From contig OZ245006.1 in the NCBI GenBank assembly GCA_965223545.1, positions 864,001 to 928,000 of the forward strand: 64,000 nucleotides of DNA. Direction: 5' to 3'. Shown here one piece after another: positions 34,161 through 46,910 of the stretch. The notes beneath the pieces are model-generated. The model was given only the letters and a program-made list of their open reading frames with translations. It was not told the DNA's origin and made no database searches. Position 1 is the stretch's first letter. Every line of letters begins with the position of its first letter. Both the position numbers and the translations under genes were made by a program. This stretch comes from Planctomycetota bacterium. GTDB taxonomy: Bacteria > Planctomycetota > UBA1135 > UBA2386.

Positions 34161-35267
34161 TCAGAAGTCGTCGAGCGTCGGCGCCGCCGCCGGCGCCTCG
34201 CCGAGCAGCGCCTCGATCTGCTTGAGCCGGTAGGGCACCCCGAAGTGATAGTCGCCCGCGTCGAACACGCCGTCGGTGCGCTGCATGCCGAGGTAGTAGC
34301 GATAGGCCGCCCGCGCCTTGCTCCAAGCCGCCTTCTTCGACGCCTCGTCGCTGCCGCCGATCCGGTCGTAGTGGTCGTAGTAGTAGTTGCCGAGGTTGAG
34401 CACCGCGCGCGACTGGGTCGGATCGAGCGACAGCACCTGGCGGTAGAACTGCGCAGCCTCCTCGGGACGGCTGCCGAGCCAGTGGATCGCCGCCATGTTC
34501 ATCAGCGCTTCGATGTCGGCGGGGTCGTCGTCGAGGTTGCGGCGCGCGATCTCGAACGCCTGGTCGGGCCGCCGCAGCTTGTAGATCAGCAGGGCGACGT
34601 AGTCGCGCTGCACTTCGCGGTCGGTCGGCCGGGCGCGGAGATAGTTGGCGTACTCGAGCTCGGCCTCTTCGTAGCGACCGAGCTCCTCCAGCACCTGGCC
34701 CAGCTCCAACCGCGCCTCGGCGAAGTCGGGCTCCGCCGACAGCGCGTTCTGCAGCGCGGTCAAGGCCGCCGCGGTCCGCTTGCCACCGCGGTGCAGCCGC
34801 GCCAGCGAGAGGTAGGCCCAGTAGAAGCTCGGGTCGCGCTGCAGCGCGCCCTGCAACAGCTGCTCGCGGGTGTACTCGTCCTCCGCGGACAGCCGCGCCC
34901 GCAGGTAGACCGGCACCGGCGACGTGCCGTCATCACCGGCCTCGGCATAGCGCGACACCGCCTCCTGCAACGCCGCACCGCCGACGCGCTCGGCGGCGTC
35001 CACGTAGGCGAGATGGGTGCGCACGTGCTCCGGACATGCATCCAGAACGGCCTCCAAGTGGGGCAACGCGCCGGCGTAGTCGCCCCGCGCGAGGAGCGCG
35101 CGCCCCTGACGCAGCGCTTCTACGCCGGCGGGCGACGCACAGCGCTCGTAGCGGTCGACGCTCTGCGCCGGCGGCGCCAGGCCCGGCGTCTCGCAGCTCG
35201 AAAGCCCGAGCCAGCCCAGCAGCGCCAGACCGACCGCGCGGCGCTCAGCGCTGGTGCAGCATGCCAT
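34161..35267 (-). CDS. TPR-repeat lipoprotein
   Basis: LGLSSC lipobox; multiple TPR repeats; start approximate. Confidence 0.8.
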   Translation of the reverse strand: MACCTSAERRAVGLALLGWLGLSSCETPGLAPPAQSVDRYERCASPAGVEALRQGRALLARGDYAGALPHLEAVLDACPEHVRTHLAYVDAAERVGGAALQEAVSRYAEAGDDGTSPVPVYLRARLSAEDEYTREQLLQGALQRDPSFYWAYLSLARLHRGGKRTAAALTALQNALSAEPDFAEARLELGQVLEELGRYEEAELEYANYLRARPTDREVQRDYVALLIYKLRRPDQAFEIARRNLDDDPADIEALMNMAAIHWLGSRPEEAAQFYRQVLSLDPTQSRAVLNLGNYYYDHYDRIGGSDEASKKAAWSKARAAYRYYLGMQRTDGVFDAGDYHFGVPYRLKQIEALLGEAPAAAPTLDDF

Positions 35268-35715
35268 CCGCGATCCGCACCTCTGAGTAGTCCTCGGTGG
35301 CTCCGCCGCGCGACAAGCCGACGGCGCCGCGCGCCAACGCCTCCAGGGCAAACGGCTTGCCACTGCCCCGAATCCGCAGGGACGCGGACTTCAACGCGGC
35401 GAACTGCACGCCCTCGATCTCGAACCGCAGCGGCAAGTGCACCCCGCCGGCGGTGACCCAGGTGAAGACGACGTCGCCGTCCTCCTCGGTGCGGGTGGCC
35501 TCACCGGCCGTGCCGCCGACCGGCCGCGTCAGCTTCTCGTTGAAGTTGCGTGACAGCTCGAAGTGCACCTCGTCGGCGACCACCGCCAGCGAGTCCTGAA
35601 ACGGTCGCAGCAGTCGCTCGCGCTCCGCGCGCACGGCCTCCGGCGCGACCGCCGGGGTTCCACAGGCGCCGAGCGCCAACAGCAGGGCAAGGTTTCGGCA
35701 AGTCCTCGGATTCAT
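35245..35715 (-). CDS. Hypothetical lipoprotein
   Basis: MNPRTCRNLALLLALGAC lipobox; GGAGG RBS upstream. Confidence 0.75.
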   Translation of the reverse strand: MNPRTCRNLALLLALGACGTPAVAPEAVRAERERLLRPFQDSLAVVADEVHFELSRNFNEKLTRPVGGTAGEATRTEEDGDVVFTWVTAGGVHLPLRFEIEGVQFAALKSASLRIRGSGKPFALEALARGAVGLSRGGATEDYSEVRIADGMLHQR

Positions 35716-36873: not shown

Positions 36874-38301
36874 ATGCGGGCGGTGTGGATCGCAGCGTGG
36901 CTCGCGTGCACGACGAGCTGCGCGTGGATGCCGAGCGAGCTCAACTTCTCGCCGCTGTACCGCCACCGCCTCGACGCCGACGGCAGCGTGCGCGAGATGG
37001 ACGTGCTGTGGCCGATCTTCCACTACGAGAAGACCGAGGACGGCGGCGACGACTTCCGCATCCGGCCGTTCTACCGCTACGTGACCGAGGGACCGGACGC
37101 GCCCGACCCCGGATTGCACGACCCGCAACCGGTGTCCGAGCATCAGTTCTTGTGGCCGCTCGGCCGGGTCTACCACAGCGCCACCGGTGAGACCCTGGCG
37201 CGGGTGTTCCCGTTCTGGGGCTACAAGGAGCGCGAGGACGACCTCGGCCTGCGCGAGACCGACTGGAACGTGTGCTATCTGCTCTGGGGCGGCAGCCGCG
37301 CCGACGGTGGCGAGGACTACCTGGGGCTGCTGCCGTTCTGGGCGGACCTGCCGGACTTCCTCACCTACGACCGCTTCCAGGCGCACTTCTTTCCGCTGCA
37401 CGTCGGCCTGTCGAAGAACGGGCTGGAGAGCGATCTCTGGTTGTGGCCATTGATCGGCTGGGGCTCCGATCCGGAGACCGGCCGCGCCTGGCACCGCGCA
37501 CTCCCGCTGTACGGCTACGCCGAGGAGGCGGGGCGCTACGAGCGCTACTCGGCGCTCTGGCCGTTCGTGCACTGGGGCTACGAGAACCTGGACACGGCGC
37601 ACCCGGTCAACCGCTTCTTCTTGTTCCCGTTCTACGGCCGGATGAGCGGCGAGACCGTCGACTCGTGGACGGTACTGTGGCCGTTCTTCTCGAAGTACGA
37701 GCTGGAGGACAAGATCTACCGGCTCGATCTGTTCTGGCCGTTCTTCCGCTACGAGCGCAACAGCATCGACGAGGACCTCGAGCGGATCTGGCTGTGGCCG
37801 CTGTTCGCCGCCACGCGGACCGAAGACCAGCGGGCCCTCAACTTCCTGTGGCCGCTGATCTGGCTGCGGCAGTACGACGATCCCGAGGCCACGGTGACCC
37901 AGGAATGGGTGCTGCCGCTCTACTGGCACACGCACCGGCGTTGGAAGGACGGCGGCGACGACGACTATGTCAAGGCGTGGCCGTGGTTCCACCGGCGCAC
38001 CGAGCGCGACGGCAGCGGCGAGTGGTCGCTGCTGTCGCCCTGGCCGTGGAGCCAGGGCAACGCCTACGGCGTCGAGGAGGCCTACGGCTGGCTGTGGACC
38101 CTGGCGAAACGGCGCTACACCGAAGACTCGGACTCGTTCCACCTGGCGGCGCACCTGTTCACGACTGCCGAGCGCAAGGGCCGGCGGCAGACCAGCGTGC
38201 CGTTCTTGTTCAACTACGAGTCCGACGAGAACGGGGCGGCGACGCTGCGCCTGTTCCAGTTCATTCCGATCCCGCTCGGCGGCGGCGAGCCCGAGCAGTG
38301 A
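36874..38301 (+). CDS. Aromatic 'xWPF'-repeat lipoprotein, first gene of the MCE operon
   Basis: Signal peptide with Cys (WLACTTSC); about 18 clear Pro-centred aromatic repeats; GTGA overlap with mlaE. Confidence 0.85.
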   Translation: MRAVWIAAWLACTTSCAWMPSELNFSPLYRHRLDADGSVREMDVLWPIFHYEKTEDGGDDFRIRPFYRYVTEGPDAPDPGLHDPQPVSEHQFLWPLGRVYHSATGETLARVFPFWGYKEREDDLGLRETDWNVCYLLWGGSRADGGEDYLGLLPFWADLPDFLTYDRFQAHFFPLHVGLSKNGLESDLWLWPLIGWGSDPETGRAWHRALPLYGYAEEAGRYERYSALWPFVHWGYENLDTAHPVNRFFLFPFYGRMSGETVDSWTVLWPFFSKYELEDKIYRLDLFWPFFRYERNSIDEDLERIWLWPLFAATRTEDQRALNFLWPLIWLRQYDDPEATVTQEWVLPLYWHTHRRWKDGGDDDYVKAWPWFHRRTERDGSGEWSLLSPWPWSQGNAYGVEEAYGWLWTLAKRRYTEDSDSFHLAAHLFTTAERKGRRQTSVPFLFNYESDENGAATLRLFQFIPIPLGGGEPEQ

Positions 38302-39095
38302 GCGTGCTCGCCGACACCGGCGCCTGGGTGCGCAAGCTGGTCGACGGTGCCGGCTACTCGGTCAACCTGGGCAGTCGCGCCTGGCTGGCGGTGCCGTATC
38401 TGCCGCGCCGGCTGCGCTTCACCCTCGATCAGGCCTATGCCTGTGGCGTGCGCGCGCTGCCGGTGACCATGGTGGTGGCACTGTTCGCCGGCATGATCCT
38501 CGCGTTGCAGACCGGCATCGAGCTGCGCAACTTCGGCCAGAGCCAGATCATCGGCACGGTGACGGCGCTCACCATGTGCCGCGAGATGGGGCCGTTCATC
38601 ACCGGGGTGATCCTCGCCGCCACGGTGGGCTCGGCGATGGCGGCCGAGCTCGGCACGATGAAGGTCAGCGACGAGGTCACCGCCCTGGAGGTGATCTCGG
38701 TCGATCCGGTCAACTACCTGGTGATGCCGCGCGTGCTGGCGCTGACCGCCATGTGCCCGATCCTCACCTTGCTGTCGGATCTGGTCGGCATCTTCGGCGG
38801 CAGCATCGTCGGCGCGGCGCATCTCGAGGTCTCGACCACGACGTATTGGACGACCGTGCGCGATGCGCTCACCTCGAGCGACCTGTGGTTCCCCAAGGAC
38901 GTCTACACCGGGCTGTTCAAGGCCTTGGTGTTCGGCTGCGTGGTCGCCACCGTGAGCTGCGCCGCCGGGCTGCGCGCCACCGGTGGCGCCCTCGGCGTGG
39001 GATTGGCGGTGCAGACCGCGGTGCGCAACTCGGTGATCCTCATCATCGTGCTGGGCTACATCCTGACCGTCTCCTTCTACTTCTGGACCTGGTGA
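38298..39095 (+). CDS. mlaE: MlaE-family ABC permease
   Basis: REMGPFITG, GSAMAAELGTMKVSDEVTALE, GGALGVG. Confidence 0.92.
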   Translation: MSVLADTGAWVRKLVDGAGYSVNLGSRAWLAVPYLPRRLRFTLDQAYACGVRALPVTMVVALFAGMILALQTGIELRNFGQSQIIGTVTALTMCREMGPFITGVILAATVGSAMAAELGTMKVSDEVTALEVISVDPVNYLVMPRVLALTAMCPILTLLSDLVGIFGGSIVGAAHLEVSTTTYWTTVRDALTSSDLWFPKDVYTGLFKALVFGCVVATVSCAAGLRATGGALGVGLAVQTAVRNSVILIIVLGYILTVSFYFWTW

Positions 39096-39820
39096 TCGAG
39101 CTCAAGGACGTCGCCAAGACCCTCGGCGGCCGCCAGATCCTGGACGGCATGACCCTGCAGGTCCCCAACGGCAAGAACTACGTGCTGATGGGCCCGTCGG
39201 GGGTCGGCAAGAGCGTCACGCTCAAGCACGTGATCGGCGTGCTGAAGCCCGACCGCGGTGAGGTTCTGGTCGACGACCAATCGGTGCCCGAGCTCGACCG
39301 CAACGGGCTGATGGCGCTGCGCCGGCGCATGGGCTACCTGTTCCAGAACGGCGCGCTGATCAACTGGCTCGACGTCTTCGACAACGTCGCGCTGCCGCTG
39401 CGCGAGCACAGCGACAAGAACCGGAGCGAGATCGAGGACCGGGTCATGGAGGTGCTGCAGCTGGTCGGCATGGACCACGCCGCGCAGCAGCTACCGGCGA
39501 AGATCTCGGGCGGCATGAAGCTGCGCGCCGGGCTGGCGCGCGCGCTGGTGACCGAACCGGAGTACGTGCTCTACGACGAGCCCAACGCGGGCCTGGATCC
39601 GATCATGTCGGACCAGATCCACAATCTGATCGTCGAGGTGCGCGACCGCCTCGGCGTCACCGGGCTGGTGGTGACCCACAGCCGCGCGTGCGCGTTCACG
39701 GTGGCCGACCGCATCGGTGTGATCCAGGACGGCAAGATCCTCGAGGAGGGGACGATCGCCGAGATGCGGCGGTCCGCGACCCCCCTGGTGCAGAGCTTCA
39801 TGAGCGGAGGCGCCGACTGA
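39092..39820 (+). CDS. mlaF: MlaF-family ABC ATPase
   Basis: GPSGVGKS, LFQNGAL, ISGGM, YDEPNAGLDP, VTH. Confidence 0.92.
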   Translation: MIELKDVAKTLGGRQILDGMTLQVPNGKNYVLMGPSGVGKSVTLKHVIGVLKPDRGEVLVDDQSVPELDRNGLMALRRRMGYLFQNGALINWLDVFDNVALPLREHSDKNRSEIEDRVMEVLQLVGMDHAAQQLPAKISGGMKLRAGLARALVTEPEYVLYDEPNAGLDPIMSDQIHNLIVEVRDRLGVTGLVVTHSRACAFTVADRIGVIQDGKILEEGTIAEMRRSATPLVQSFMSGGAD

Positions 39821-40953
39821 TGGCAATGCAGAGAGACACGCTCCTAGGCCTGGTGTTCTTCGGCGGCTTGGCGCTGCTCGGCTGGGCCACGGTCAGCCTG
39901 ACCAGCCTGTCGCTGGAACCCAAGGTGATCAAGACGGTGCGCTTCGCGCACGCCCAGGGGCTGCGCGAGGGCGACCCGGTGTTCGTGCTCGGCAAGCGGT
40001 TGGGCCAGGTCAACAAGATCTCGCTGCCCGGGGGCGACGTCTCCCGCCAGGTCGAGGTGGTGTTCCAACTCGACGAGGACATCCCGCTGCGGCCCGATGC
40101 GCGGATCACGGTGCGGCCGCCGGCGATGCTCGGCAACAGCTACATCGAGATCGATCCGGGCGTCACCGAGGGCGCCCTGGCGGGGCCGCTGGTCGGCGAC
40201 TCGCGCGGCAGCGCGCTCGATCAGATCGGCGACGCCGACGTCACCGGCACGGTCGACTCGGTGAAGCGCTTCTTCGACCGGCTGGTCGACCCGGACAACG
40301 CCGTCGGCGCTCTGCTGTCCAGCCGCGAGGCCTACGACGATCTGGCGGCCGCCCTGGCGGTGCTGCGCCGCCTCCTCGAAGAGGTCGAGACCGGCGAAGG
40401 CGCGATCCACCAGCTGCTCTACAACCGCGACATGGGCGAGGACCTCGCCGGCACCGCCCGCAACCTCAACCAGCTCACCGAGAAGCTCGACTCGGGCAGC
40501 GGCCTGTTCGCCCGGCTGGCCAACGATCCGGCGCTGGCCGACGACCTGGCGAGCGCGCTCGACGACCTCGCCGCGCTCGTGGCGATGACCCGCCGCGGCG
40601 AGGGAACCCTTGGCCGGGTGTGGACCGACGAGGAGCTCGCCGACCGCATCGCCGCCGCGATCACCTCGCTGCAGTCGGTCGCCGCCAAGCTCGACGACCC
40701 CGACGCCGGCTTCGTCGGCGCCCTGTTCGGCGACCAGACCCTGCTGCAGCAGGGCCGCGAGATCTTCGCCGACGTCGCCGACGCCGTGGCGAAGATCAAC
40801 TCCGGCGACGGCTTCCTGGCCAAGATCATCAACGACAACACCCTCGGCGAGCGCCTCGAACGCCTGTTCCTACAGGTCACCGGCGCCCTCGAAGACGCCC
40901 GCGAAGCCGCCCCGATCGGCTCGTTCTTCCAAGTCCTCACCGGCTTCTTCTGA
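39820..40953 (+). CDS. mlaD: MlaD/MCE-domain protein with long helical repeat tail
   Basis: N-terminal TM, GLREGDPVFVLG..G.V, MLGNSYIEIDPG; six ~35-aa helical repeats. Confidence 0.9.
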   Translation: MAMQRDTLLGLVFFGGLALLGWATVSLTSLSLEPKVIKTVRFAHAQGLREGDPVFVLGKRLGQVNKISLPGGDVSRQVEVVFQLDEDIPLRPDARITVRPPAMLGNSYIEIDPGVTEGALAGPLVGDSRGSALDQIGDADVTGTVDSVKRFFDRLVDPDNAVGALLSSREAYDDLAAALAVLRRLLEEVETGEGAIHQLLYNRDMGEDLAGTARNLNQLTEKLDSGSGLFARLANDPALADDLASALDDLAALVAMTRRGEGTLGRVWTDEELADRIAAAITSLQSVAAKLDDPDAGFVGALFGDQTLLQQGREIFADVADAVAKINSGDGFLAKIINDNTLGERLERLFLQVTGALEDAREAAPIGSFFQVLTGFF

Positions 40954-41041: not shown

Positions 41042-42016
41042 ATGAGACGTTCGCTTCTGGTCGCACTCGTGTTCGCGCTGGGGCTTCGGGGACAGGAGGC
41101 CGCGATGGTGGAGCTGGTGTATCGCGCGCCGGTCGAGGACGCGATCGCGCGGGGATTGCTGTCGGCCAAGACGGATCTCGACGCGACGAGGGCGGCGGTG
41201 GCGGACGTGCTGCGCAGGCGGCTTGCCGCGCTGCAAGTCGACGGGCGCGTCACCGTCGACGAACGGCGCGGGTTGGTGGTCAGCGTGCCTGAGACGGCGG
41301 CCGCGCAGCCGGAGCTCAGGCGTTTCCTGACCGCGGAGCACTTGGTCGAGTTCAGTGCGCTGGTCCCGGCAGAGGGCACCGACGCGTTCGACTTGCGGGC
41401 GGAGCGAGCGCAGCTGATCGGTTGGCTCGAACGCCCCGGCATCCGCGAACGCGTCGCCGCGACCCCACGCCTCATCGAACAGTTTCACCACCTGCCCGCG
41501 GATGACGGTGGCCCGCTGCGCGCCAATGGAATCCGCTGGCGTGCGCACCGAATCCGAGTCCGACGCGGACAATTCCTACCAGCGCTGTCGACCGACCGAC
41601 CCGACGCCGCGGTGCCCCTGTTCAGCCCCGCCGAACACGCCGCGGGTCCCACCGGCCCGGACGCGACGCTGATCGAGCTGCTCGCAACCGACAGGACCAC
41701 GCCAGCGTTCCACGCCAGTGACTTCGCCGAGGACGGCTTTGTCGACACGGTCCAACCCGACGGCACCCACGGCTTGGGCTATCGCGTGATCGACGACCGC
41801 CTCCGCGCTTACCGGAACTGGACCGCCGCGCTCGAGGACCACCCAATGCTGATCGCGATCGCCGACGAAGTGGTCCTCACCCCGATCGTGTCGTCCCCGA
41901 TCTACGGCTCGGGCCTACTCCACGGAATCCCCGATTCGGAGCGGACCCTCCTGACCCGCGCCATGCGACACGCCCGCGCCCCGCTGCCGCTCGCTCTGCT
42001 CCCGGTCGACCGATAA
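41042..42016 (+). CDS. Secreted protein homologous to the SecD P1 periplasmic domain
   Basis: Signal peptide, then colinear similarity to about residues 38-358 of SecDF at 43926; no TM domain. Confidence 0.8.
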   Translation: MRRSLLVALVFALGLRGQEAAMVELVYRAPVEDAIARGLLSAKTDLDATRAAVADVLRRRLAALQVDGRVTVDERRGLVVSVPETAAAQPELRRFLTAEHLVEFSALVPAEGTDAFDLRAERAQLIGWLERPGIRERVAATPRLIEQFHHLPADDGGPLRANGIRWRAHRIRVRRGQFLPALSTDRPDAAVPLFSPAEHAAGPTGPDATLIELLATDRTTPAFHASDFAEDGFVDTVQPDGTHGLGYRVIDDRLRAYRNWTAALEDHPMLIAIADEVVLTPIVSSPIYGSGLLHGIPDSERTLLTRAMRHARAPLPLALLPVDR

Positions 42017-43925: not shown

Positions 43926-46910
43926 ATGATTGAGAACCCGCAACGTCAGGTCATCCTGATCGTGGTCGTCGCCCTGGTGGCGCTCTTCCTGTGTTGGAGC
44001 GAAGAGCCCAACCTCGGCCTCGACCTCGAGGGCGGCACGCAGCTGGTCTACGAGCTGCCGATCGAAGAGGCGATCAAGCAGAACCAGCTGGACGAGGACG
44101 CCGACCCGCAGGCGGTGATCCAGCAGACGCTCGCCATCATCGGCAACCGCATCGACCCCACCGGCGTGCGCGAGGCGGTGATCACGCAGCGCGGCGACCG
44201 TCAGTTCATGGTCGAGCTGCCGCGGGTGACGCGGGCCGAGGCCCAGCTGATCAAGAGCCAGATCCAGAATCTCGGCAAGCTCGAGATGCGCGCCCTGGCC
44301 GAAGACACCTACGCCAAGGACGGCGTGCAGTTCGACCTGGCCGAAGAGACCAGGCGGCTGCAGGAGTGGATGGACAAGGATGCCGCCGACGGCCGCACCA
44401 ACCGCGAGCGGCTGGCCGAAGACCCGCATCACATCCAGCAGTTCAACACCCTGCCGGCGACCAACGGCGGCCGCCAGAACCAGGAGCACTTCCTGTGGTA
44501 CGCCGCGCAGGTGCTCCCCTCGATGCGCGACCCGAGCCGCTGGGACCTCGCGTTCTCGCAGCACCCCCAGCGCACTTGGAACGTCGTCGCGGCGTTCACG
44601 CCGGCCGAGTTCGCCGCGGCCCCGCCCGCCGCCGAGGGCAACCAGAAGCCGTTCCTGGTCGAGCTCTACCCGATCAACCTGCACGAGGTGCACTTCACCG
44701 GCGAGGACATGGACGCCAACGCGGTGCGCGCCGGTCCCCACCCGGAGACCGGCGCACCGTCGGTGTACTACGGCCTGACCGGCACCAAGCAGACGGACTA
44801 CGCCGACTTCTCCGAGGAGTACATCGGCAAGCCGAGCGCGATCATCCTCAACCAGCTGGTGCAATCGGCGCCCTCCTTCCAGGGCCGCATCTTCGGCAAC
44901 GGCATCATCCAGGGCCAGTTCACCAACCCCGAGGCGCAGGCGCTGGCCAAGGTGATCCGCACCGGCTCGCTCAAGGTCAAGCCGGTGCCGATCTCGGACC
45001 GCACCATCGGTCCGACCCTCGGCGCCAAGTCGATCGAGCTCGGCCAGATCTCGATCGCGGTCGGCGGTGCGCTGGTGCTGATGTTCATCCTGGCCTACTA
45101 CCGGCTGGCCGGGCTGGTCGCGTTCGTCGGGCTGGCGCTCAACGTCTTCTTGATCTACGCCGCGGTGCTCTTCATCCGCGCCACGATCACCCTGCCCGGC
45201 ATCGCCGGCCTGGTGCTGACGATGGGCATGGCGGTCGACGCCAACATCCTGATCTACGAGCGCATCCGCGAGGAGCTGGCGCGCGGCAAGGACCTGCTGC
45301 GCGCCGGGCGCGCCGGCTTCGACCGGGCGATGGTGACCATCCTGGATGCCAACGTCACCACCTTCATCGCCGGCGTGGTGCTCTACAACGTCGGTGTCGG
45401 TCCGGTGCGCGGCTTCGCGGTCACGCTGATGATCGGCATCCTGACCACGCTGTTCACGGCGTTCTTCGTCAGCCGCGTCGTGTTCCACTACATGATCGAG
45501 CGCGAGGTGCTGAAGTCGTTCCAGGTCGCCGGCTGGTTCGACCGGCTGCGCTTCGACTTCGTGCGCGCCGGCAAGGTCGCGTTTTCGCTCAGCGTCGTCG
45601 CGGTACTGGTCGGTCTGGCGGTCACGCTCTGGGTGCCCGCCGACCGCAAGCTCGGCCTCGACTTCATGGGCGGGGCCGCGATGGAGCTGTCGCTGGCCGA
45701 GCCGCAGACGGCGCGCGGCCTCGAGCAACGCCTGCTCGACGACGACGAGTTCCGCTCGGAGTTCCCCAATCCGCTCGTGGCGACCATCGATGACGTCGAT
45801 GAAGCCGGGCAGTCCCGCTCCTTCTCGGTCAAGGTCAAGCTCAGCGAGGCGATGCGCGATCGCGTCACCGCGGAGAAGGCCGCCGCCCTCGAAGCGGGCG
45901 AGGATTACGAGCCTTTCTACAAGAGGCAGCTCAAGGAACTGCTCGCGCCGGTGCTCGTCGCCGATGCCTTCAGCCACGCCGAGTCGGTCGAGGTGCCCGG
46001 CGGCGCGCTCGAAGAAGCCGAAGTGCACGTCCACTTCACCTCCCCGGTCGAGGTGGAAGCCGCGCGCCAGCTCTTGGTGCAGCGCGTCAGCGAAGCCGCC
46101 ACCGTCGCTCCGCTCGACGATCCGGAGGCCACCCAGACCGATGCACTGCTGGTCAACTTTCCGGTCACGCCGGGCACTCCCCCAACGCAGCTGACCGCCG
46201 ACGTCACCGAGGCGCTGGACGGCCTACAGGACACCGCCGGCAACGAGGTCGCGCTGTCGGAACCGATCCCCAACGCGGAGGACATCAGCCCGCGCATGGT
46301 CGGGCAGCTGCGCATGTCGGCGATCGCCGCCATGCTGATCTCGCTGTTCCTGATCGTGATGTACATCCGGATCAGGTTCCACGAGTACAAGTACGGCTTC
46401 GCCGCGGTCGCGGCCCTGGTGCACGACGTGACCATCACGCTCAGCGTCGTCGTGCTCTTCAACTACCTCGGTCTGGTCAACGCCGAGATCGATCTGGCGA
46501 TGATCGCGGCGTTCCTGACGATCATCGGCTACTCGATCAACGACACGATCGTCATCTTCGACCGCATCCGCGAGAACGTGATGGACAACGAGCGGCTCGG
46601 CGAGAGCCGCGAGTCGTTCGGCGACCTGATCAACCGCTCGATCAACCAAACCCTGTCGCGCACCATCCTCACGTCGGGCACCACGCTGTTCGTGGTGCTG
46701 GCCCAGTTCTTGGTCAACCGGGGTTCCGGCAGTGCGCTGGAGGGCTTCTCCTTCGCCATGCTCGTCGGCATTCTGTTGGGCACCTACTCGACCATGTTCA
46801 TCGCCTCGCCGGTCGTACTCTGGCTGCGCAACCGGGAATCCGGTGGCTCCGCGGCCACCGGCGCCGATCCGGTGTCCAACCCCACGGCCAGCGTACCGGC
46901 CAACGCCTGA
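43926..46910 (+). CDS. secDF: Fused protein translocase SecDF
   Basis: LGLDLEGG, GMAVDANILIYERIREE, LGLDFMGG, GYSINDTIVIFDRIREN. Confidence 0.97.
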   Translation: MIENPQRQVILIVVVALVALFLCWSEEPNLGLDLEGGTQLVYELPIEEAIKQNQLDEDADPQAVIQQTLAIIGNRIDPTGVREAVITQRGDRQFMVELPRVTRAEAQLIKSQIQNLGKLEMRALAEDTYAKDGVQFDLAEETRRLQEWMDKDAADGRTNRERLAEDPHHIQQFNTLPATNGGRQNQEHFLWYAAQVLPSMRDPSRWDLAFSQHPQRTWNVVAAFTPAEFAAAPPAAEGNQKPFLVELYPINLHEVHFTGEDMDANAVRAGPHPETGAPSVYYGLTGTKQTDYADFSEEYIGKPSAIILNQLVQSAPSFQGRIFGNGIIQGQFTNPEAQALAKVIRTGSLKVKPVPISDRTIGPTLGAKSIELGQISIAVGGALVLMFILAYYRLAGLVAFVGLALNVFLIYAAVLFIRATITLPGIAGLVLTMGMAVDANILIYERIREELARGKDLLRAGRAGFDRAMVTILDANVTTFIAGVVLYNVGVGPVRGFAVTLMIGILTTLFTAFFVSRVVFHYMIEREVLKSFQVAGWFDRLRFDFVRAGKVAFSLSVVAVLVGLAVTLWVPADRKLGLDFMGGAAMELSLAEPQTARGLEQRLLDDDEFRSEFPNPLVATIDDVDEAGQSRSFSVKVKLSEAMRDRVTAEKAAALEAGEDYEPFYKRQLKELLAPVLVADAFSHAESVEVPGGALEEAEVHVHFTSPVEVEAARQLLVQRVSEAATVAPLDDPEATQTDALLVNFPVTPGTPPTQLTADVTEALDGLQDTAGNEVALSEPIPNAEDISPRMVGQLRMSAIAAMLISLFLIVMYIRIRFHEYKYGFAAVAALVHDVTITLSVVVLFNYLGLVNAEIDLAMIAAFLTIIGYSINDTIVIFDRIRENVMDNERLGESRESFGDLINRSINQTLSRTILTSGTTLFVVLAQFLVNRGSGSALEGFSFAMLVGILLGTYSTMFIASPVVLWLRNRESGGSAATGADPVSNPTASVPANA

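Follow-up and report, generated by a model that had tools for sequence, protein, structure and literature searches.

How MlaEFD-type MCE lipid transporters of the Planctomycetes-Verrucomicrobia-Chlamydiae (PVC) bacteria reach the outer membrane is a gap left in the literature. In the available part of PMC10665443, MlaEFD with a long MlaD is described as the common form (most diderm bacteria possess a long MlaD but neither MlaA nor MlaC), the MlaD of Veillonella is reported to have its own outer-membrane barrel, and this barrel is stated to be absent in PVC bacteria, for which unidentified partners are allowed for. Here, we address the question with a four-gene operon from a Planctomycetota bacterium (lineage UBA1135; UBA2386; GenBank assembly GCA_965223545.1) that resides on contig OZ245006.1 in a window of 64,000 nucleotides (positions 864,001 to 928,000 of the forward strand, i.e., the whole stretch analyzed, from the first letter of which all positions are counted). 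The operon is headed by a gene for a repeat protein of aromatic-proline beta-hairpins, in the following termed gene 1, and continues with mlaE, mlaF and mlaD. We conclude that gene 1 very probably is a dedicated component of this transporter, whatever its exact position, and that by analogy it is likely to act as the outer-membrane collar of a needle-type MCE lipid transporter, putatively receiving the tails of MlaD. The transporter is of a known kind while its terminal component is probably of a new, undescribed kind. Together with the matching MlaD tail, the gene 1 family constitutes a specific candidate for filling the gap, with a testable handle of 13 residues.

In full agreement with the first-pass annotation of this DNA, four overlapping open reading frames (ORFs) on the plus strand span positions 36874-40953 and are joined by the junctions GTGA, GTGA and TGATG. 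Codon-position guanine-plus-cytosine (GC) contents back all four frames, third-position GC amounting to 0.94-0.96 in gene 1, mlaE, mlaF and mlaD, and sequences resembling promoters or terminators were not detected. The gene set for a MlaEFD-type MCE transporter is complete, i.e., it comprises MlaE (PF02405), a syntenic MlaF-like ATPase and an MCE protein with an N-terminal membrane helix. The operon encodes an MCE lipid transporter of this type, with lipid transport itself predicted from the protein families. It differs from the six-component Mla system in that neither MlaA nor MlaC is matched anywhere in this genome (91% complete) and in that MlaD, with 377 residues, is not short. As noted before, the operon itself contains no match to MlaA, MlaC or PqiC. 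The premise derived from this absence, that MlaEFD systems always need a separate partner, does not stand in general, since MlaD from Veillonella carries its own barrel (PMC10665443, available part). It holds for the operon studied here only because its MlaD is devoid of a barrel: the MCE domain is followed by about 250 residues with GxGxLGxLxxD repeats and, by sequence, no C-terminal barrel. Likewise at the sequence level, 66 of the 79 MlaD proteins linked to gene 1 stop 13 residues past a conserved proline.

The occurrence of gene 1 is tightly coupled to that of mlaE. A total of 95 planctomycetal loci of the fixed-length class were examined, comprising the 29 best from the automatic output and 66 that were selected manually further down the list because their flanks were long enough. 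In 92 of them (86/89 and 6/6), mlaE is a neighbor of gene 1 in the same orientation. Among loci of the close family the corresponding number is 78 of 80, and 75 of 75 if only those with 1 kb or more of downstream sequence are counted. Metagenome loci from a Geobacter-type alignment, for which the taxonomy of the contigs was inferred from the query, gave very similar values (73/80, and 64/64 with at least 1 kb downstream); most of these loci are ordered gene 1-mlaE-mlaD with mlaF elsewhere. Gene 1 is nearly always situated directly in front of mlaE, often overlapping it, and this adjacency persists down to about 25% identity and in two phyla. A fifth partner common across the lineages was not apparent, shared neighbors being lineage-specific housekeeping genes according to visual inspection of noisy ORF clusters. 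Of the 51 PqiC-type hits recorded for 41 gene-1-positive genomes, not one is situated in a 15-kb radius around gene 1. Close neighborhood to MCE genes is the rule for fixed-length homologs of gene 1 and not, as the first-pass annotation had considered, a rarity; the same tie emerged from a profile analysis over 301 Planctomycetota genomes, 142 of which contain a gene 1 match.

This analysis pointed to one particular type of MlaD. The linked proteins share a characteristic C-terminal tail (Table 1) with the proline present in 78 out of 79 sequences, the phenylalanine in 73 and uncharged residues throughout beyond the proline in 73, the Geobacter variant reading D-T-G-P-I-S-V-L-G-S-I-I-G-T-L-F. 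Screening of these 301 genomes with a 48-column profile of the MlaD end revealed 128 genomes with gene 1 as well as the tail, 168 with neither, four with gene 1 only and a single one with the tail only. The latter in fact carries an operon of gene 1, mlaE, mlaF and mlaD. Two of the four gene-1-only genomes have a contig ending before or inside mlaD and the third contains a linked tail just below the threshold; the fourth (G241) is taken up below. Outside the set of genomes from which the profile was built, 75 of 76 tail-positive genomes are also gene-1-positive, and families with mixed occurrence (f34, f73, f80 and f30) divide in the same way for gene 1 and for the tail. The genome studied here harbors two further mlaEFD operons that lack gene 1, encode MlaD proteins with different tails and each have a lipoprotein partner of their own, which is of the PqiC type in one case (at about 1.19 Mb on C1) and TPR-like in the other. 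Each MCE operon therefore appears to have its own MlaD tail as well as its own envelope partner, with gene 1 serving as the partner here.

What kind of protein is encoded by gene 1? It matches no Pfam or NCBIfam family at an E-value of 0.1 and nothing in the PDB by sequence better than E 0.65, so that an assignment to a characterized family, with which the original proposal would have fallen, did not emerge. All 17 distinct tip motifs listed earlier are present (LWPLI occurs twice), and a relaxed tip pattern is matched 17 times compared to a mean of 0.8 and a maximum of 5 in shuffled sequences (n = 2000). The number of hydrophobic turns is around 22 vs. the 18 quoted initially. The statement that the protein consists almost entirely of repeats is correct insofar as the motifs are mostly spaced by 18-22 residues, the intervals being wider at 65-93 and 113-152; beyond residue 390, a conserved helix (400-407) and three hairpins poor in proline interrupt the repeat. 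The designation as a lipoprotein was also borne out in part. Among 110 close relatives with a residue at the column of cysteine-16, 109 retain this cysteine, while the lipobox is imperfect (TTS-C16) and lipobox-like motifs occur in 83/120, 16/34, 5/21 and, for the Geobacter-type members, 4/54 sequences of four alignments. Lipidation is not a family-wide feature, and gene 1 encodes a predicted lipoprotein in the clade of the window.

The anticipated beta-hairpin repeat is clearly seen in the AlphaFold2 model of gene 1 alone (alignment of 120 sequences; predicted local distance difference test, pLDDT, 94.7; predicted template modeling score, pTM, 0.84), an all-beta meander of 44 strands of 4-8 residues with a single helix at 400-407. 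A Geobacter-type member modeled separately yielded the same meander and helix (pLDDT 89.0, pTM 0.73). The turn prolines are the best-conserved alignment columns. Across 622 sequences, positions -2, -1, +1 and +2 relative to these prolines are hydrophobic in 82-96% of the cases, whereas the loops reach only about 10-17%. The loops opposite the turns carry charges, and long hydrophobic alternation along the strands is absent, a pattern more in keeping with hairpins that dip into a single leaflet than with a transmembrane barrel. Foldseek searches (PDB and viral structures) and VIA-align returned no match to the whole fold, which is no proof of a new fold; partial matches comprised single-layer meanders, propellers and barrels with template modeling (TM) scores of at most about 0.2 and a best Z of 9.1 over 87 residues.

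Coevolution analysis recovered the hairpin contacts of gene 1, and the strongest long-range pairs join both ends of the chain (26-426, 30-427, 26-424, 46-426, 31-444 and 47-445). In the full as well as in the close-family alignment, the block 17-46 x 417-446 ranked first among 703 long-range blocks, with 26-426 as the top pair (z 10.5). The simplest reading of this coupling suggests a ring that is closed by an overlapping seam.

The collar model takes the rings formed by PqiC and PA3214 as its precedent, to which gene 1 bears no relation in sequence or fold class. According to the available parts of PMC13631591 and PMC10897342, these proteins are octameric outer-membrane rings that receive an MCE needle, with C-terminal peptides of the MCE protein mediating the binding. 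In gene 1, the meander would curl such that hairpins 1-2 meet hairpins 20-21, so that one turn would comprise about 19 hairpins. A simple geometric estimate (38 strands x 4.8 Å) then gives a ring diameter of at least about 60 Å. The approximately 22 hydrophobic tips would be arrayed along one rim and embedded in the outer membrane on its periplasmic side, i.e., in the periplasmic leaflet, which would explain why the lipid anchor can be missing. Six MlaD chains would form a tube spanning the periplasm, the uncharged 13-residue tails of which could enter the same leaflet inside the ring and lie against the tips. The collar would then fence and loosen a patch of lipid, from which MlaEF-driven transport may draw lipid into the tube; phospholipid as cargo and an inward direction are proposed solely by analogy to the Mla and Pqi systems. 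A more far-reaching picture, which we put forward tentatively, would comprise a single-chain hairpin ring with a new overall fold and about 22 aromatic tips in one leaflet that encloses a patch of lipid and seats six MlaD tail helices, thus creating a half-bilayer extraction site that resembles neither MlaA nor PqiC nor a barrel. Many Planctomycetota as well as Desulfobacterota might employ it, with the longer relatives as larger membrane fences for other machines. If the ring proved true, it would represent a membrane-anchoring architecture without a solved counterpart.

Hopanoids were considered as an alternative cargo, because both main phyla make hopanoids, and were rejected. Squalene-hopene cyclase is present in 42 of 132 gene-1-positive genomes and also in 64 gene-1-negative ones, and was not found in this genome or in 17 other sampled genomes of its order. 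The available part of a hopanoid preprint (PMC12324291) does not mention the gene 1 family.

Several other arrangements have to be weighed against an outer-membrane collar. Gene 1 might be a periplasmic sleeve of the same transporter with the tips pointing inwards and lining a lipid-holding groove around the tip of MlaD. Partly hydrophobic strand positions beside the tips, several tip-to-tip couplings between distant hairpins, and the long relatives, which are unable to close into one ring and might form spirals, would be in line with this arrangement. We consider it unlikely, as six short MlaD tails would not suffice to cover the about 85 large hydrophobic residues at the tips, the distant couplings are at noise level, and many members lack a lipid anchor and would have to be tethered to the membrane by something else. 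An accessory on the inner-membrane side, i.e., a collar or assembly factor around the membrane core of MlaE and MlaD, is improbable. Monotopic tips would suit either membrane and gene 1 directly precedes, and often overlaps, mlaE with mlaD two genes away, but gene 1 tracks one type of MlaD tail and not MCE systems in general, the other two mlaEFD operons of this genome make do with other lipoproteins, and the linked MlaD would otherwise be left without an outer-membrane end.

On account of the short strands and the confinement of hydrophobicity to the turns, it appears quite improbable that gene 1 encodes a transmembrane beta-barrel or pore of very large size by which an outer-membrane channel is completed, even though closure of a beta-meander is barrel-like and barrels are among the partial structural matches (Z around 6, root mean square deviation 4-13 Å). 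In one clade, 13 of 34 members end in an aromatic residue, often as LLWFxxF, which we take to resemble the signal for the beta-barrel assembly machinery (BAM); this residue is missing in the protein of the window and in all 54 Geobacter-type members. That gene 1 encodes a general membrane-lining or surface repeat protein merely co-regulated with the transporter is highly improbable. Such a function would agree with longer relatives that occur without MCE genes, some of them weakly matching NF047486 below its cut-off. It is difficult to reconcile with an adjacency kept to about 25% identity in two phyla and with gains and losses that follow the MlaD tail even within the four mixed families.

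A number of observations weigh against gene 1 as a dedicated, ring-forming collar. Three of the 89 loci lack mlaE nearby despite about 20 kb of sequence, and one of these stems from genome G241, a true exception without any hit to tail-type MlaD. The repeat itself is not specific for MCE systems, as none of seven loci of the long repeat proteins has mlaE or mlaD as a neighbor, and fusions to MlaE, MlaF or MlaD do not occur among 49 long forms. E-value thresholds for gene 1 and the tail were placed in gaps of the score lists after these had been viewed, 53 of the genomes fed the tail profile, and the 301 genomes are related to each other. With regard to the ring, the seam blocks rank second and third and are weaker in an alignment of distant members only, and the end-to-end coupling could equally reflect a head-to-tail contact between chains. 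Paired coevolution of gene 1 and MlaD (171 pairs, effective number 119) did not reveal any outstanding pair (top z 5.3), an analysis that is underpowered.

With respect to known systems, an outer-membrane collar built by gene 1 would come closest to PqiC-like proteins (Escherichia coli PqiC and Pseudomonas aeruginosa PA3214; PF03886). These are likewise encoded together with an MCE needle protein, and operons of the PA3211-PA3214 type have the same four-gene make-up. On the other hand, PqiC is an alpha/beta protein of about 20 kDa and 200 residues, the octamer of which is largely hydrophilic on its surface, whereas gene 1 specifies a single all-beta chain of 52 kDa and 475 residues with about 22 hydrophobic tips and no match to PF03886, and the tail of the linked MlaD is different. 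The MlaEFD system of Veillonella parvula also lacks MlaA and MlaC and has a long MlaD that has been suggested to span the periplasm. In that system, a 10-stranded barrel within MlaD makes up the outer-membrane end (PMC10665443, available part), while here it would consist of a short uncharged tail and the product of a separate, linked gene. The E. coli MlaFEDB-MlaC-MlaA system shares the MlaE, MlaF and MCE domain families but differs in its short MlaD, its shuttle and the helical ring formed by MlaA. Among solved structures, the CPAP TCP domain, OspA, MORN repeats and the teneurin YD shell resemble gene 1 as antiparallel hairpin ribbons (Z 9.1 to 7.5). These single-layer meander matches cover at most 219 of its 475 residues and have neither aromatic-proline tips nor sequence similarity.

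Searches with gene 1 yielded 426 and 758 relatives. The close ones stem from uncultured Planctomycetota, while the alignment of distant relatives led to proteins with names referring to Geobacteraceae, Syntrophaceae, Desulfobacteria and Schekmanbacteria. A further cluster stems from Victivallales. The family extends over Planctomycetota, Desulfobacterota and other groups. An experimental test is practical because members occur in cultured Geobacteraceae, i.e., Citrifermentans bremense and Geomonas. Family length is confined to about 460-520 residues (5th-95th percentiles 459-521 and 478-533 in two hit sets), and a Pfam scan of 34 distant members did not return any family. The clusters obtained from the atlas lacked a common Pfam family, and the automatic name "GWxTD domain-containing" of one of them was without Pfam support. 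A description of the family was not found in literature searches, which covered few subscription papers and no supplements.

Longer proteins of variable length (about 500-1900 residues) built from the same aromatic-proline hairpins form a second class that occurs in Planctomycetota, Nitrospirota, Verrucomicrobiota and Spirochaetota and is related to LA_1737 (NF047486). LA_1737 and the long proteins resemble gene 1 in their C-terminal end and are built from repeats of the same type but differ from it in their variable length and in their location away from MCE genes (7 loci). Weak matches to NF047486 were detected in 6 of 60 relatives scanned, the only one above the cut-off being a protein of 1767 residues. 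For the C-terminal model (cut-off 60 bits), gene 1 gave no hit and fixed-length relatives scored at most 28 bits. No functional study of the LA_1737 family was found in the literature searches.

Table 1. Features of the gene 1-mlaEFD operon and its products in the window.
Feature	Position	Strand	Remarks
Gene 1, repeat envelope protein (aromatic-proline beta-hairpins)	36874..38301	+	475 aa; single copy in this genome
Signal peptide of gene 1 up to conserved Cys16	36874..36921	+	predicted lipoprotein in this clade; model helix 2-16
44-strand meander, turns alternating between hydrophobic x-W-P-F/L-aromatic and polar loops	36937..38280	+	AlphaFold2
Predicted seam, N-terminal half, residues 23-47	36940..37014	+	coevolution
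Conserved helix 400-407 interrupting the repeat	38071..38094	+	AlphaFold2, also Geobacter-type model; consensus lines
Predicted seam, C-terminal half, residues 419-445	38128..38208	+	coevolution
MlaE-family permease	38298..39095	+	PF02405, E 6.7e-69; TIGR00056 over cut-off
MlaF-like ABC ATPase	39092..39820	+	PF00005; top NCBIfam match NF008809 MlaF, under equivalog cut-off
Long MlaD, 377 aa	39820..40953	+	N-terminal membrane helix; PF02470 at residues 39-114
MCE domain of MlaD, single	39934..40161	+	PF02470
Conserved MlaD tail, E-D-x-R-E-x-x-P followed by ~12 uncharged residues with terminal Phe	40891..40953	+	marks the gene-1-linked MlaD type

Variations were encountered among the gene 1 operons of other organisms. 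Some (L077, L079, L080, L089, L093 and L060) contain tandem MlaD paralogs or two sets of mlaE and mlaD, which hints at hetero-oligomeric needles. Geobacter-type operons (L176-L229) are often located downstream of leuC/leuD-looking genes. In a single family (L065, L066 and L070), the gene 1 frame runs upstream without a stop into an extra domain, which we take to be FHA-like, and the adjacent MlaE is divergent; the extension may be a fusion or an in-frame neighbor. In the genome studied here, the third mlaEFD operon (C1:1143000-1156000), the one with the TPR-like lipoprotein downstream instead of PqiC or gene 1, possibly features another type of partner.

Within the window, mlaD is directly followed by an ORF of 324 residues (41042-42016, plus strand) with a signal-like N-terminus and without Pfam match. 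It shows 28% identity over 159 residues to the periplasmic part of SecDF (43926-46910) and may be a free SecD periplasmic-domain protein. Weak relatives are encoded a few kb downstream in nine close-family loci, and a paralog is present at about 2.12 Mb on C1. On the other side of the operon, a predicted lipoprotein with TPR repeats is encoded on the minus strand (34161-35363), downstream of trpS.

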